Below, piece by piece: positions 1-4,921 of a DNA stretch of 4,921 nucleotides; the stretch's first letter is position 1, and each line of letters starts with the position of its first letter. The stretch covers positions 1-4,921 of IMG/VR virus record IMGVR_UViG_2529293142_000015; one strand, given 5' to 3'. This DNA comes from a virus (taxonomy: Duplodnaviria > Heunggongvirae > Uroviricota > Caudoviricetes). Position numbers and translations under genes: made by a program. The notes beneath the pieces are model-generated. The model made no database searches. It was not told where the DNA came from and saw only the letters and a list, made by a program, of their open reading frames with translations.

Positions 1-681
1 CATACTGTTAATCGCGTCATCCTGGACGCAACACATCAGAACCGCATTATTGCAGAGCTGGTTATTCCTCCAGAAACGGGCGGATTCTGGATCCGGGAAA
101 TTGGTGTATTTGATGAGCACGGCGATTTAATCGCGGTGGGCAATACTGCCGAAAGTTACAAGCCAGCCGTTGCCGAAGGGTCCGGACGTGCACAAACATT
201 TCGCACCATTCTGACCGTATCCAGCACTGCCACTGTGGCGCTTACCGTGGATAACACCATGGTGATGGCCACAGTGGATTACGTGGATAACAAACTGAAA
301 GAGCATGAACAGTCACGACGTCACCCGGATGCCTCGCTGACCGCAAAAGGCTTTGTTCAACTCAGTAGCGCCACTAACAGCGATTCTGAAACGCTGGCGG
401 CAACGCCAAAAGCAGTTAAGGCCGCGTATGACCTGGCTAACGGGAAATACACCGCACAGGATGCAACGACAGCACAGAAAGGGATAGTTCAGCTCAGCAG
501 CGCGACCAACAGCACATCTGAAATGCTGGCGGCAACGCCAAAGTCGGTAAAGGCAGCCTATGACCTTGCTAACGGGAAATATACCGCTCAGGACGCTACG
601 ACAGCACAAAAAGGATTGTCCAGCTCAGTAGTGCAACCAACAGCGCATCTGAAACGCTTGCCGCGACACCGAAAGCAGTGA
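1..681 (+). CDS. stf: Side tail fibre protein Stf, 5' portion (5'-partial; truncated by a 1-nt deletion at 613-615, then runs out of frame to TGA at 679-681)
   Basis: Frame 1 is open from nt 1 with no stop, so the true start lies upstream. The translation (..[32 protein letters not shown]..) resembles the conserved N-terminal region of lambda Stf / P2 gpH-type fibres, followed by two 44-aa tail-fibre repeats (..[39 protein letters not shown]). After 614 the frame-1 product becomes nonsense ([21 protein letters not shown]) while frame 3 continues the repeat. Confidence 0.85.
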
Positions 682-700
682 AAGCAGCTAATGATAATGC
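349..700 (+). repeat. Tail-fibre repeat array: two complete 132-bp (44-codon) units at 349-480 and 481-612, plus a partial, frameshifted third unit from 613
   Basis: Direct comparison of the DNA and the translations: units start at exactly 349, 481 and 613 (period 132 nt). The copies share the protein motif but differ at many synonymous positions. Confidence 0.85.
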
Positions 701-1832
701 GAATGGTCGGGTACCTTCTGCCCGTAAGGTGAATGGTAAGGCGCTTTCAGCGGATATAACACTGACGCCGAAAGATATTGGTACGCTTAACTCAACAACA
801 ATGTCATTCAGCGGTGGTGCTGGTTGGTTCAAATTAGCAACGGTAACCATGCCACAGGCGAGTTCTGTTGTTTCAATTACGTTGATTGGTGGCGCGGGAT
901 TTAACGTGGGGTCACCTCAACAGGCAGGTATATCTGAACTTGTTTTGCGTGCAGGTAATGGTAATCCGAAGGGGATTACTGGTGCTTTATGGCAGCGCAC
1001 ATCGACAGGGTTTACAAATTTTGCCTGGGTCAATACATCTGGTGATACTTACGATATTTACGTTGCAATCGGAAATTATGCGACTGGTGTAAATATTCAA
1101 TGGGATTATACCAGTAATGCCAGCGTGACTATTCATACGTCACCAGCATATTCTGCTAATAAGCCGGAAGGGTTAACGGACGGTACAGTTTATTCACTCT
1201 ATACGCCATCAGAGCAGTTTTATCCGCCTGGCGCACCAATCCCGTGGCCATCAGATACCGTTCCGTCTGGTTATGCCCTGATGCAGGGGCAGACTTTTGA
1301 CAAATCTGCTTACCCGAAACTTGCAGTTGCTTATCCGTCAGGCGTGATCCCTGATATGCGTGGCTGGACGATTAAGGGCAAGCCCGCCAGTGGTCGTGCC
1401 GTATTGTCTCAGGAACAGGACGGCATTAAATCGCACACCCACAGCGCCAGCGCATCCAGTACGGATTTGGGGACGAAAACCACATCGTCGTTTGATTACG
1501 GTACTAAAACGACCAGTTCATTTGATTACGGCACAAAAACCACAAATAGCGCAGGAGCTCATTCACACAATATACCTGTTGGTCACACTGGCGCGGGGAA
1601 TGGTGTATCAGCCGGTTATAACGCTGCGTTAGGTACTGGTACCACGTCGAGCGCAGGAGGGCATGCTCACAATGTATATATTGGTGCCCATAACCACACT
1701 ATCGGCATTGGTGCTCATGCCCATTCTGTCATTATTGGTCCCCACGGACACACCATCACCGTTAATGCTACGGGGAACGCAGAAAACACCGTAAAAAACA
1801 TCGCATTTAACTATATTGTGAGGCTTGCATAA
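678..1832 (+). CDS. stf: Side tail fibre protein Stf, 3' portion (homology actually begins at 615; 678 is only the first GTG in that frame)
   Basis: Frame 3 from 615 reads [25 protein letters not shown].., a third copy of the tail-fibre repeat, and continues into a distal domain with a [10 protein letters not shown] tandem and many HxH motifs ([33 protein letters not shown]), ending ..[11 protein letters not shown]. This is the pattern of the lambda Stf / T4 gp37-type receptor-binding tip. The stop TAA at 1830-1832 overlaps the tfa ATG. Confidence 0.85.
1470..1550 (+). repeat. 30-bp in-frame tandem repeat (about 2.7 copies) encoding [10 protein letters not shown] in the Stf distal domain
   Basis: Units at 1470-1499 (ggg acg aaa acc aca tcg tcg ttt gat tac), 1500-1529 (ggt act aaa acg acc agt tca ttt gat tac) and a partial copy from 1530 (ggc aca aaa acc aca aat agc). 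The protein is identical between full copies while the DNA differs at wobble positions. Confidence 0.8.
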
Positions 1833-2431
1833 TGACATTCAGAATGAGTGAACAATCACGGACCATAAAAATTTATAATCTGCTGGTCGGAACCAATGAA
1901 TTTATTGGTGAAGGTGATGCATACATTCCACCTCATACAGGTCTGCCTGCAAATAGTACTGATATTGCTCCGCCAGATATTCCAGCTGGCTTCGTGGCTG
2001 TTTTCAACAGTGATGGGGCGTCCTGGCATCTCGTTGAAGATCATCGTGGTAAAACGGTTTATGACGTGGCTTCCGGCGACGCGTTATTTATTTCTGAACT
2101 CGGTCCGTTACCGGAAAATGTCACCTGGTTGTCGCCGGAAGGGGAATATCAGAAGTGGAACGGCATAGCCTGGGTGAAGGATACGGAAGCAGAAAAAGTG
2201 TTCCGGATACGGGAGGCGGAAGAAACAAAAAACAGCCTCATGCAGGTAGCCAGTGAGCATATTTCGCCACTTCAAGATGCCGTAGATTTGAATATTGCAA
2301 CAGAGGAAGAAACATCGTTACTGGTGGCATGGAAGAAGTATCGAGTGCTGCTGAACCGTGTTGATACATCAAGAGCACCGGATATTGAGTGGCCAGCTTC
2401 CCCAGTGGAATCAAGGAGTAAACAAGCATAA
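1832..2431 (+). CDS. tfa: Tail fibre assembly protein (lambda Tfa / P2 gpG family chaperone)
   Basis: 199-aa ORF beginning [61 protein letters not shown].., which closely matches my recollection of lambda Tfa. It lies immediately 3' of stf with a TAATG stop/start overlap, and GAGG sits 8 nt upstream of the ATG. Confidence 0.9.
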
Positions 2432-2525
2432 AGGCTTTCATTTCAAACCATTGTAGTCCAGTTTTTTGTATAGTACCCTGCTCATTACGGATGACATGTG
2501 TGATTTGGAATTTCAGGGTACCATT

Positions 2526-3179
2526 ATGAATGTTATTTCATCGTTAAAACAGCTTAACAGACAGCGAAATATTAAAACAAAAAAGATAAAGACGAAGGCC
2601 AGACTGGCATTTCTAAAAATGCGATACAGAAGGAAAACATCATTACAGCCGGATAGTTATAAAACAGTGTGCATTTTCATGCACATGCAAGCCATTGGTG
2701 ACGGCATCGTTACCTCAGGGTTTATTAAACAACTTCAAAAATCCGGTATGGTGGTATATGTGATAGCACCTTCAAGAGTATCATTCCTCTTTACTGACAT
2801 TGTTGGCGTGGATGCCTTTATATCTTACGAGAAAAATAAATTTAACGAACTAAAAGCAAAGATAAAAAAACTGAATGTAGATCTTGTTGTTGACTTCTCA
2901 AATTTTGATAACACAGCGATAACCAGATTGCAAACACTACATTTACTTAGACCTAAACACTCTATCTGTTTTAATCATCCTGCCGTAACTATTTTTGATA
3001 CAAATATAATCGATAATCGTTCCATTCACACATCTGAAAGAATGAAAAAAGTTTTATCTTTACTAAAGATAAAAAATAATAATTATGCTGCAGCGCTTAA
3101 TTTTGACAACAAAATATATGAACCAGCAAATATTGTTGCAAATGAATTCAGGAAAAAAACAAAAATTAGTTATATTTAA
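2526..3179 (+). CDS. Glycosyltransferase family 9 (heptosyltransferase-like), N-terminal fragment; ends out of frame at TAA 3177-3179 after the A7 tract
   Basis: The translation contains ..KTVCIFMHMQAIGDGIVTSGFIKQL.. (compare the GT9 N-terminal strand plus the S.LGD motif of WaaC/WaaF) and ..VDLVVDFSNFDNTAITRLQTLHLLRPKHSICFNH.. (compare the ..DLVIDLQG...S..L....ga..riG.. region). Start chosen at ATG 2526 because AGGG lies 7 nt upstream; the ORF-track start 2466 is TTG, and ATG 2496 and ATG 2619 are alternatives. The region is very AT-rich. Confidence 0.6.
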   Translation: MNVISSLKQLNRQRNIKTKKIKTKARLAFLKMRYRRKTSLQPDSYKTVCIFMHMQAIGDGIVTSGFIKQLQKSGMVVYVIAPSRVSFLFTDIVGVDAFISYEKNKFNELKAKIKKLNVDLVVDFSNFDNTAITRLQTLHLLRPKHSICFNHPAVTIFDTNIIDNRSIHTSERMKKVLSLLKIKNNNYAAALNFDNKIYEPANIVANEFRKKTKISYI

Positions 3180-3702
3180 CCCTTATGGCTCTCAGAATAG
3201 CAGAACCTTATCTGATGAACAGATAAAAAAAGTACTAGCTTACCTTAATAACCTTAAGGGATATCACACAATAGTTTTTAATATGGGAAAACAGATTAAT
3301 CACAATGGATTGGATAATGTGTCTCTATCTCCATTTTCTGATGCCGGATGTTCATTTGCATTGGTTCGCCATGCTGATTTTGTTATAACTGTAGATACTG
3401 CCATTGTACATTTAGCCAGTGCATTAAACATTAGACAATACTGTATATATAATAACAGAATGCATGAAGGAAAATTCGAAAATAATATTGTGTGGGGGCC
3501 AAACAGCAAATTAGCGACTCAACTCACCACATCCGAACATCTAAGGTCTGAAGGGGGCGACGATATGCATAAATTCGACATAATGATCTTAATTAATGCT
3601 ATCAAACAAGATTTGACAAACGATATACCGAATTACCACTCGGATTTAGGTTGTAAAAATAGTTCCAGAAACCCAGAATTAGAAAGTAGCAATTCTTTAT
3701 AA
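3085..3702 (+). CDS. Glycosyltransferase family 9 (heptosyltransferase-like), C-terminal fragment (homology clear from about 3160; 3085 is only the first ATG in this frame)
   Basis: The translation ..KKQKLVIFNPYGSQNSRTLSDEQIKKVLAYL..GYHTIVFNMG.. and ..FALVRHADFVITVDTAIVHLASALNIRQYCIYN.. parallels the WaaC/WaaF C-terminal domain (..AKFVVSVDTGLSHLTAALDRPNITVYG.. / ..CKAIVTNDSGLMHVAAALNRPLVALYG..). It is in the +1 frame relative to the N-terminal fragment. Removing one A from the A7 tract fuses the two into one GT9-sized protein of about 390 aa from ATG 2526 (about 360 aa from ATG 2619). Confidence 0.6.
   Translation: MLQRLILTTKYMNQQILLQMNSGKKQKLVIFNPYGSQNSRTLSDEQIKKVLAYLNNLKGYHTIVFNMGKQINHNGLDNVSLSPFSDAGCSFALVRHADFVITVDTAIVHLASALNIRQYCIYNNRMHEGKFENNIVWGPNSKLATQLTTSEHLRSEGGDDMHKFDIMILINAIKQDLTNDIPNYHSDLGCKNSSRNPELESSNSL
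3153..3159 (+). repeat. A7 homopolymer at the junction of the two glycosyltransferase reading frames (followed by C and an A5 run)
   Basis: Sequence ggAAAAAAAcAAAAAtta. The upstream frame reads R-K-K-T-K-I-S-Y-I-stop; the +1 frame reads G-K-K-Q-K-L-V-I-F-N-P-Y-G-S. A6 or A9 would give an in-frame fusion (..NEFRKKQKLVIFNPYGS..). Confidence 0.75.
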
Positions 3703-3789: not shown

Positions 3790-3798
3790 AATGTAAAA

Positions 3799-4293
3799 TC
3801 AGAACAGTCCTTTAACTGAACTGGCCGCGCTGTTAAGAGATGATGTCACCTTATCTTTGAAGCCGGACAGCATATCGCTGAACGATGAGGATTGCAGGCG
3901 CTCCCGCAAATCCTCATCACAGCGTTCAAGGGTCAGTGAAAATTCTATCTTTTTCGCCTTACCGTAGCGATCAAACTCGGAACGGGTCGTATTCGTTCCG
4001 GTCAGGACATACATGCCGTAAATCTGCCCGACACCATCAATCAAAGGCCAGGGTCGTCCTGTATACGCCTGCGTGGTCAGCAGCGACAGCGACACTTCGC
4101 CACCTGTAATTTCAGGATAAAGCACACCAGAAAGCACGATGCGATCATCACCTGCACCGATATACTGCCAGCTTGCTGAACGGTTAACGCGTTCATTTTT
4201 CACATGCCGCCAGCTTTTGTTTTGCTGTAACTGCTGATGCGGCAGCGTGCGCAGCTCAAAAACAAACATGCCGTAGATCATCATCATGGCCAT
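3799..4293 (-). CDS. Phage tail protein, P2 gpU family
   Basis: The 164-aa ORF (MAMMMIYGMFVFELRTLPHQQLQQNKSWRH..LSGVLYPEITGG..LIDGVGQIYGMYVLTG..KIEFSLTLERCDED..) matches the pattern I recall for P2 gpU. GAGGAG sits 2 nt before the first ATG (4293) and 8 nt before the second (4287), so the true start is probably 4287. The upstream gene's stop overlaps the SD (TGAGGAG), indicating coupling. Confidence 0.75.
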   Translation of the reverse strand: MAMMMIYGMFVFELRTLPHQQLQQNKSWRHVKNERVNRSASWQYIGAGDDRIVLSGVLYPEITGGEVSLSLLTTQAYTGRPWPLIDGVGQIYGMYVLTGTNTTRSEFDRYGKAKKIEFSLTLERCDEDLRERLQSSSFSDMLSGFKDKVTSSLNSAASSVKGLF

Positions 4294-4299
4294 GACTCC

Positions 4300-4921
4300 T
4301 CAATCTTTATCGTAAAAACTTCCACGCCCGGCACGGGCGCGCCGTTCCATTTCTGCCCTGATCATTTCACCGACCAGTTTCGCCAGTTCGCGGGGATTCT
4401 GCGTAACAACGTTATGCAGATGAACATGAATTTCACCACCAAATCCGGAGGCAACAGGCTCCCGGTTACGGAAAGTTGCAGGAACTGATGCCACTGGCGA
4501 TCGTATGGCCTCCGCCACCGGGCGGGAGCTGGCCGCAACAACAGGGACCAGCGCCGGAGGCAGCGGAGCCGGAACTACGGGTGTGATATTAATTGCGGGG
4601 GCAGGCTTACTGACCTGCGCAATCTTCCGCTCCTGCCACTCCCCACGAACAGCAAGTGCGCGGGGCAGGTTCTTAAAGACAATATCGCCGGGGCCAATGC
4701 GTTTTTTCGTCTCATCAACCAGCTTACCTGTGTTATCAGCAATTTTGCTGAGTCTGCGTAGCGTCCCGGTATTGCTGTCTGTGAGCGGTTTGTTGTCTTT
4801 GGGCTTATCACCTCCGGTGCCATTGCCATTTTCCACAGGCTTCGGCGGATTGATTTTCGCCAGGTCCCCCTGAAGCAAGGCAACCTTGTCCTGAAGAATG
4901 GCCGCACGCTGTGCGTCTTCG
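4300..4921 (-). CDS. Tail tape-measure protein, C-terminal portion (P2 gpT-like; 5' end beyond the right window edge)
   Basis: The minus-strand frame is open from the window edge (EDAQRAAILQDKVALLQGDLAK..) to TGA at 4300-4302; the 4878 'start' in the ORF track is only a TTG. It sits immediately upstream of and coupled to the gpU-like gene, as for T-U in P2-type tail operons. It has a Pro/Ala-rich low-complexity stretch and a GC-rich composition. The assignment rests on synteny and general character, not a specific motif. Confidence 0.6.
   Translation of the reverse strand, partial: EDAQRAAILQDKVALLQGDLAKINPPKPVENGNGTGGDKPKDNKPLTDSNTGTLRRLSKIADNTGKLVDETKKRIGPGDIVFKNLPRALAVRGEWQERKIAQVSKPAPAINITPVVPAPLPPALVPVVAASSRPVAEAIRSPVASVPATFRNREPVASGFGGEIHVHLHNVVTQNPRELAKLVGEMIRAEMERRARAGRGSFYDKD

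Follow-up and report, generated by a model that had tools for sequence, protein, structure and literature searches.

The window that we analysed, a stretch of 4,921 bases from a putative E. coli prophage, carries a tail-fibre gene from which the beginning is cut off, the 610 codons that remain (positions 1-1832) lying in two reading frames. The question that this locus raises is whether one missing base has cost the prophage its fibre, whether the two frames are joined by recoding or by a reversible switch, or whether the base is missing from the record and present in the cell. The features on which the answer depends are the following.

1-681, plus strand: 5' part of the fibre gene, H, in frame 1; the start lies off the window, window codon 1 is H residue 62, and the predicted product of 287 aa consists of the native residues to Gly266 and 21 out-of-frame residues ending at TGA 679-681.
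334-719, plus strand: three PF03406 fibre repeats (about 334-456, 466-588 and 598-719) with a period of 44 aa or 132 nt, the third of which carries the lesion; the boundaries of the first are from Pfam (residues 173-213) and those of the second and third are extrapolated from the 132-nt period.
608-612, plus strand: a run of five A, directly 5' of the lesion and of the same length in intact relatives.
613-616, plus strand: the lesion, GGAT in the window and GGAAT in every intact relative.
615-1832, plus strand: 3' part of H in frame 3, which encodes what is left of repeat 3, then the shaft, the Collar domain (PF07484) and a C-terminal tip rich in His with HxH motifs; translation could begin at GTG 678 at the earliest, for a product of 384 aa, and this GTG overlaps the frame-1 stop as GTGA.
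1832-2431, plus strand: tfa, tail-fibre assembly chaperone (PF02413), intact, 199 aa.
2526-3702, plus strand: cargo gene for a glycosyltransferase of family 9 (GT9), 392 aa when intact, here split by two one-base A losses within 3153-3165.
3799-4293, minus strand: P2 gpU-type tail protein (PF06995), intact.
4300-4921, minus strand: 3' end of the tape-measure gene, at the end of the window.

Direct reading and translation confirm the coordinates of the original prediction, made from the sequence alone, that a one-nucleotide deletion frameshifts the tail-fibre gene. The register is lost at 613-616, frame 1 ends at TGA 679-681, and frame 3 is open to a stop at 1830-1832. The repeats contain AAA GGC TTT (346-354), AAA GGG ATA (478-486) and, in the third, AAA GG ATT (610-617). 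The base missing from the third had been taken for a G of a G run; alignment to intact relatives, which read AAA GGA ATT GTC, shows that the loss is of one A from an AA dinucleotide, the window having GGATT for GGAATT with A615 as the survivor. The lost A belongs to the codon pair Gly266-Ile267 (GGA-ATT), near the start of the third repeat. A correctable run of two or three G, as had been proposed, is therefore not what is present, since the change is from GGA-ATT to GG-ATT and the 101 fetched loci contain the site 104 times and read AA each time. The same count answers the suggestion that intact homologues might also lack the base, as none of them did. The placement of the break in the third repeat was correct; its placement exactly at the start of that repeat was not, the break lying about six residues in. 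It follows residue 266, and the third repeat spans approximately residues 261-301 when the 44-aa period is extrapolated from the first Pfam repeat (173-213). Tandem Repeats Finder reports a period of 132 nt at 355-688 (2.5 copies, 81% matches), and Pfam finds three PF03406 repeats in the intact H allele. Reinserting the A yields a protein that matches residues 62-671 of P0001 without a difference; P0001 is an intact H allele of 671 aa that is recorded on 81 public contigs.

The identity of the gene required correction. It had been named as the stf gene of lambda, a label that is displaced by the P2-type baseplate neighbours and the PF12571 N-terminal domain found in relatives that are 99.8-99.9% identical to the window. 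In these relatives, GPW, Baseplate_J and Tail_P2_I genes precede the fibre gene. In near-identical prophages it is followed by tfa, the cargo gene and then, on the opposite strand, gpU and the tape-measure gene, as in phage P88, and the sheath, tube, E, tape-measure and U genes converge on the fibre gene from this other side. The gene order characteristic of a P2/P88-type H (baseplate J, I, H, tfa and then opposite-strand U and tape measure) was thus found, as were the domains of this type when the intact allele was compared with Pfam (PF12571, 5e-54; PF03406 three times, 2.6e-60; PF07484, 2.3e-11). Both the PF12571 domain and the synteny are visible in the closest relative, L016 (GCA_000225185.3), which is 99.9% identical to the window. 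Positions 3792-4921 have 98.3% identity to phage P88 and are also similar to other Xuanwuvirus genomes. The window gene shares with H of the P2-type, P88-like (Xuanwuvirus) phages the order of PF12571, the PF03406 repeats and the PF07484 Collar and its position between tail protein I and tfa, and differs in that the window copy is frameshifted, the intact form being P0001. Judged from sequence and gene order, the window belongs to an E. coli prophage that is a P88-like myovirus (Xuanwuvirus, P2-type), and its fibre gene is H.

H is nonetheless a mosaic gene, and the stf label arose because H shares segments with lambdoid fibre genes. True lambdoid stf genes, which lie downstream of J and lom, share 98-99.8% identity with window positions 355-1508, and positions 1223-2402 have 89% DNA identity to lambda-type stf/tfa. 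At two true lambdoid stf loci (L003 and L005), only the middle segment is in common with the window. The mosaicism with lambdoid stf is limited to the middle and C-terminal parts of H. Among complete E. coli genomes, none matched window positions 1-2450 at more than 93.5%. The assembly collection has the exact Tfa protein in over 1,600 of its blocks. Two other features of this region can be mentioned. Within the C-terminal tip of H (window 1430-1790) are tandemly repeated units and several HxH motifs (SHTHS, AHSHN, GHAHN, AHNHT, AHAHS and PHGHT), which we take to resemble the metal-binding needle at the tips of T4 gp37 and lambda Stf. On the plus strand, positions 2175-2373, inside the tfa coding sequence, score 187 bits for the Rfam family IS009 (RF02111), whose gathering score is 117; this match probably reflects a family built on the prophage tfa region and not a separate RNA gene.

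Fibre genes are well known to undergo frameshifts (PMC12617516, PMC2762979), and in one study stf was lost under selection mostly by frameshift, in 15 of 19 mutated isolates (PMC2762979). The view that the lesion is of the same kind as the stf frameshift of lambda PaPa, and a different allele, stands, as the site, the base and the fragment sizes all differ (PMC12617516). In PaPa (orf-401/orf-314; intact in Ur-lambda), as in the window, a one-base deletion gives rise to N- and C-terminal ORFs (PMC12617516), and both lesions are in or beside a homologous PF03406 repeat. The contexts are not alike: stf of PaPa lies after J-lom in a siphovirus, whereas H of the window lies after P2-type baseplate genes in a myovirus. 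Nor are the products, since in the lambda-type allele a C is missing just past the repeat and the ORFs are of 401 aa and, for the C-terminal part, 314 aa, whereas in the window an A is missing early in the last repeat and the fragments are of 287 aa and 384 aa. The lambda-type stf of HK630, which according to its annotation lacks a C present in Ur-lambda, stops after 401 aa, its last residues being ...VMDETNRKAHWTVRH; this stop is just past the repeat homologous to H residues 243-298 and about 30 codons downstream of the equivalent of the window lesion. The PaPa stf allele was rejected as an explanation for the window because the gene is not after J/lom, the base lost is not a C and the ORFs are not of 401 and 314 aa.

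The side fibres of lambda are accessory structures, whereas in P2-type phages H encodes the only fibre of the virion and is an essential late gene needed for adsorption. Translation from the H start would yield a 287-aa fragment, of which 266 residues are native (the PF12571 baseplate-attachment domain and two repeats) and 21 are nonsense. The remaining 405 residues, two-thirds of the protein and the part that binds the receptor (what is left of the shaft, the Collar and the tip), lie in frame 3, where no start precedes GTG 678. The fibre would not be made as one chain, leaving the baseplate end unlinked from the receptor end, and any particles produced would be without functional fibres and should not adsorb. 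Lambda that lacks Stf shows slower adsorption (PMC12617516); for the window prophage, non-adsorbing particles and not merely a slower adsorption would be expected, because H is the only fibre of a P2-type virion. A loss of this sort would be ordinary mutational decay of a prophage in which GT9 is already frameshifted and whose closest sister has a tfa frameshift of its own.

To revert, H would need a +1 change that falls between two stops, that of frame 3 at about 570 and that of frame 1 at 679. The A5 run at 608-612 would be the likeliest position for this change, giving Gly266Arg, and would be the only nearby place for a compensating +1 insertion or a rare -1 slip. The other route of repair is recombination with the many near-identical fibre segments of E. 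coli. In its general form, the lesion is like the frameshifted fibre pseudogenes of decaying or cryptic E. coli prophages, in which a small indel breaks a structural gene and the neighbours are intact; comparable cases annotated in RefSeq are a truncated 'phage tail protein' pseudogene in L004 and a frameshifted tail-tube gene in L002. It is unlike these pseudogenes in that the window lesion is single and very recent, with the rest of H identical to the functional allele. In two further loci, L013 and L011 (GCA_026135305.1 and GCA_025988925.1), the prophage is truncated, with an integrase remnant that abuts tfa and with H and the baseplate genes missing, evidence that in other lineages the element has decayed on a larger scale.

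Among everything searched, the lesion is private to the window sequence. Comparison of positions 520-760 with 5,426 complete E. coli genomes gave 446 records at 99% identity or above; the top-ranked of these have 242 bases against the 241 of the window, the one extra base being the only difference, and a 100% match to the lesion state was absent among the 5,426 genomes. With 446 near-identical records, the top-ranked ones one base apart, the break is not a chance reading of the window. GGAATT is also the reading in each of eleven prophages with 99.8-99.9% identity along the entire window. An exact 39-mer with the lesion had no match in GTDB species representative genomes, IMG/VR or JGI metagenomes, and the intact 40-mer was present in 87 IMG/VR contigs. 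At the protein level, the 384-aa and 343-aa C-terminal fragments of H were absent from the assembly index, and the truncated H products were absent from a set of 15 billion proteins, a result that for the N-terminal fragment applies to sources sharing the N-terminus of L016, as the first 61 residues of the 287-aa query were taken from L016 and a source with another N-terminus would escape. A protein search with the junction and the nonsense tail returned 30 candidates, which were in-frame repeats and two unrelated frameshifted fragments; no protein with the junction was among them.

Our best reading of these data is a recent, private and unprogrammed inactivating deletion in a decaying prophage, which we regard as probable, though by no means securely so. 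We infer all three elements of it: the loss of function, the recency and the origin in a true mutation rather than in a base-calling error. A real deletion is supported by the only private substitutions of the window relative to the 11 near-identical prophages, at 108 and 186. Both 108A and 186A leave the amino acid unchanged, being third-position variants found naturally in other H alleles, and they co-occur in many other H alleles of IMG/VR viral contigs; the local consensus therefore looks like real biology and not like noise. Hence, three private changes within the first 615 nt are not the sign of a bad region that they might seem, the two substitutions being cleared as natural co-occurring variants. 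The 108/186 pair itself points to recombination over a short patch of the N-terminal part of H. Mutagenesis of the type caused by diversity-generating retroelements (DGR) was considered for these changes and rejected, as they go to A and not from A, are synonymous and have an N-terminal location. The other long runs of the window, listed as A or T of 6 or more and G or C of 5, match the lengths in relatives (A7 at 2864 and 3225; A6 at 1793, 2227, 2579, 3045 and 3071; T6 at 2462 and 4702). Further decay in the prophage lineage, in the form of the GT9 double lesion common to the window and L016 and the private tfa frameshift of L016, fits with a real deletion.

There are also points against a real deletion. 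Dinucleotides lose a base by mutation only at a low rate. The lesion is carried by none of the other assemblies and collections that were searched. The differences from the closest relative are two indels and two substitutions, which is a high share of indels for real evolution. The alternative is that H is intact in the cell (GGAATT) and that one A was dropped in base-calling or consensus, possibly through an indel-prone platform, low coverage or the merging of reads from the paralogous fibre genes of other prophages; we consider this a serious possibility, though not the likely one. Such an error would account for a lesion that is private in every search when the intact 40-mer is common (the 87 IMG/VR contigs). 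Also in its favour, all indels between the window and its near-identical relatives are losses of a single A in an A run (AA to A in H; A8 to A7 and A6 to A5 in GT9), and the A6-to-A5 state of GT9 was restricted, among the 101 fetched loci, to L016, the pair L108 and L045, and the window. Positions 355-1508 have 98-99.8% identity to stf genes of lambdoid prophages, which often occur in several copies per genome; the segment is present more than once in many genomes, in up to five places, and this carries a higher risk of consensus error. However, an AA dinucleotide is not a typical homopolymer or site of systematic error, the remaining long runs listed above agree with relatives, and the two nearby substitutions, as natural synonymous variants, indicate that the region is not generally noisy. 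Moreover, not all differences in A runs need be errors, as the A8 tract of GT9 also varies in other draft assemblies (A7 in L105 and A9 in L110).

The comparison with single-base indel errors of draft genomes (454 or long-read homopolymer miscalls) gives a similarly divided result. The window resembles them in having a private one-base A loss that makes an apparent pseudogene, and the same class of difference is present in the 454-derived sister L016 and in L206 and L207; it differs in that the run is here of only 2 nt and the longer runs of the window are correct. L206 (contig of ENA ERZ21549424, 1633-4828) and L207 (GCA_026135185.1) have fibre genes with the same repeat that are fragmented by multiple indels into several short ORFs, and this breakage in other assemblies also favours an error in the window. 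The breaks in these two loci are likely to be assembly-error pseudo-frameshifts in this gene family, and the assembly naming and multiple frameshifts suggest long-read data.

Data from the 454 platform are prone to errors in homopolymer length. The closest relative, L016, was assembled with Celera from 454 Titanium reads (PMC3491183), and it has a private A6-to-A5 change in tfa, which counts further towards an error in the window. L016 differs from the window at four positions: the substitutions at 108 and 186, the A missing from H of the window and an A missing from an A6 run of tfa in L016. The last of these (L016 7308-7724; the run corresponds to window 2227-2232) cuts Tfa to 138 aa, and the run is A6 in all 23 other loci. 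As the assembly is 454-derived, the tfa loss of L016 may itself be an error. If it is true, sister prophages have each lost a different part of the fibre module, independently of one another.

The GT9 gene, unlike H at the lesion site, varies in the length of an A tract. This tract, at 3153-3165, is A7-C-A5 in the window, compared with A8-C-A6 in intact copies of 392 aa. Among near-identical prophages, A8-C-A6 was found in 16 loci, A7-C-A6 in L105, A9-C-A6 in L110, A8-C-A5 in L108 and L045, A7-C-A5 in L016 as well as in the window, and a G-interrupted form, AAGAAAAA-C-A6, in three loci. The state in the window was found in none of 49 complete E. coli genomes that have the gene. This tract looks like a slippage-prone sequence, possibly a phase-variable switch in a prophage-borne glycosyltransferase of the LPS type, and platform errors may contribute to the variation.

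The variation in GT9 shows that slippage-type variation occurs in the element, and it is the one point in favour of phase variation at H, in which the site would be a reversible slipped-strand switch turning the fibre on and off. However, a run of 2 nt (AA or A) is far under the tract lengths that slip at useful rates, and there was no length polymorphism at the site, which read AA in all 104 occurrences of the 101 loci and in the top-ranked of the 446 genome records. We consider such a switch at H to be extremely unlikely.

Recoding would offer another means of making a fibre from the two frames, either through a -1 slip of tRNA-Lys on A-AAA (609-612) that gives a low level of full-length protein or through termination at TGA 679-681 coupled to re-initiation at GTG 678, with the two fragments then assembling. 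The A5 run is directly 5' of the lesion, a -1 slip made in silico restores the correct frame (...QKRIVQ...) with Gly266Arg as the only change, and the frame-1 stop and the frame-3 GTG overlap as GTGA. Against these points, no X-XXY-YYZ heptamer is present: in the zero frame, CAA-AAA-GGA, the P-site Lys re-pairs but the A site cannot move from GGA to AGG. The 88 nt at 613-700 fold at -19.8 kcal/mol against a mean of -19.2 for shuffled sequences (z = -0.19), and an Rfam search of the window shows no recoding or frameshift element. The A5 run and GTGA are unchanged in intact relatives and hence have not been selected for a recoding role, the shifted two-frame arrangement was found in none of the 101 loci, and two fragments would have no covalent link between the baseplate-binding and the receptor-binding parts. 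A programmed -1 frameshift was accordingly rejected on the heptamer, the stimulatory structure and the conservation of the arrangement, and recoding in either form appears to us very unlikely. The GTGA at 678-681 has a layout used for the coupling of termination and re-initiation; intact relatives have the same bases, so the overlap came about by chance with the lesion and is not designed. A more speculative proposal, which we also hold to be very improbable, is that a real lesion is tolerated through a low level of full-length Gly266Arg fibre (by the tRNA-Lys slip on A-AAA or by frequent A5-to-A6 insertion), keeping a throttled and stochastic infectivity, and that the fibre and cargo region of P88-like prophages would be, together with the GT9 tract, a cluster of slippage-controlled switches.

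In summary, we favour a recent inactivating deletion of one A in gene H of a decaying P88-like prophage. If the deletion is real, the prophage would be unable to build its only fibre and would be trapped in its host unless rescued by reversion or recombination. It would then be a routine step of prophage decay and mainly a matter of annotation, the gene being an H pseudogene and not stf. If it is an artefact, it would be a quality flag for the source assembly only. With either outcome, knowledge of fibre biology is unchanged, and the variation of the A tracts in the GT9 gene may be a more promising lead than the lesion in H.
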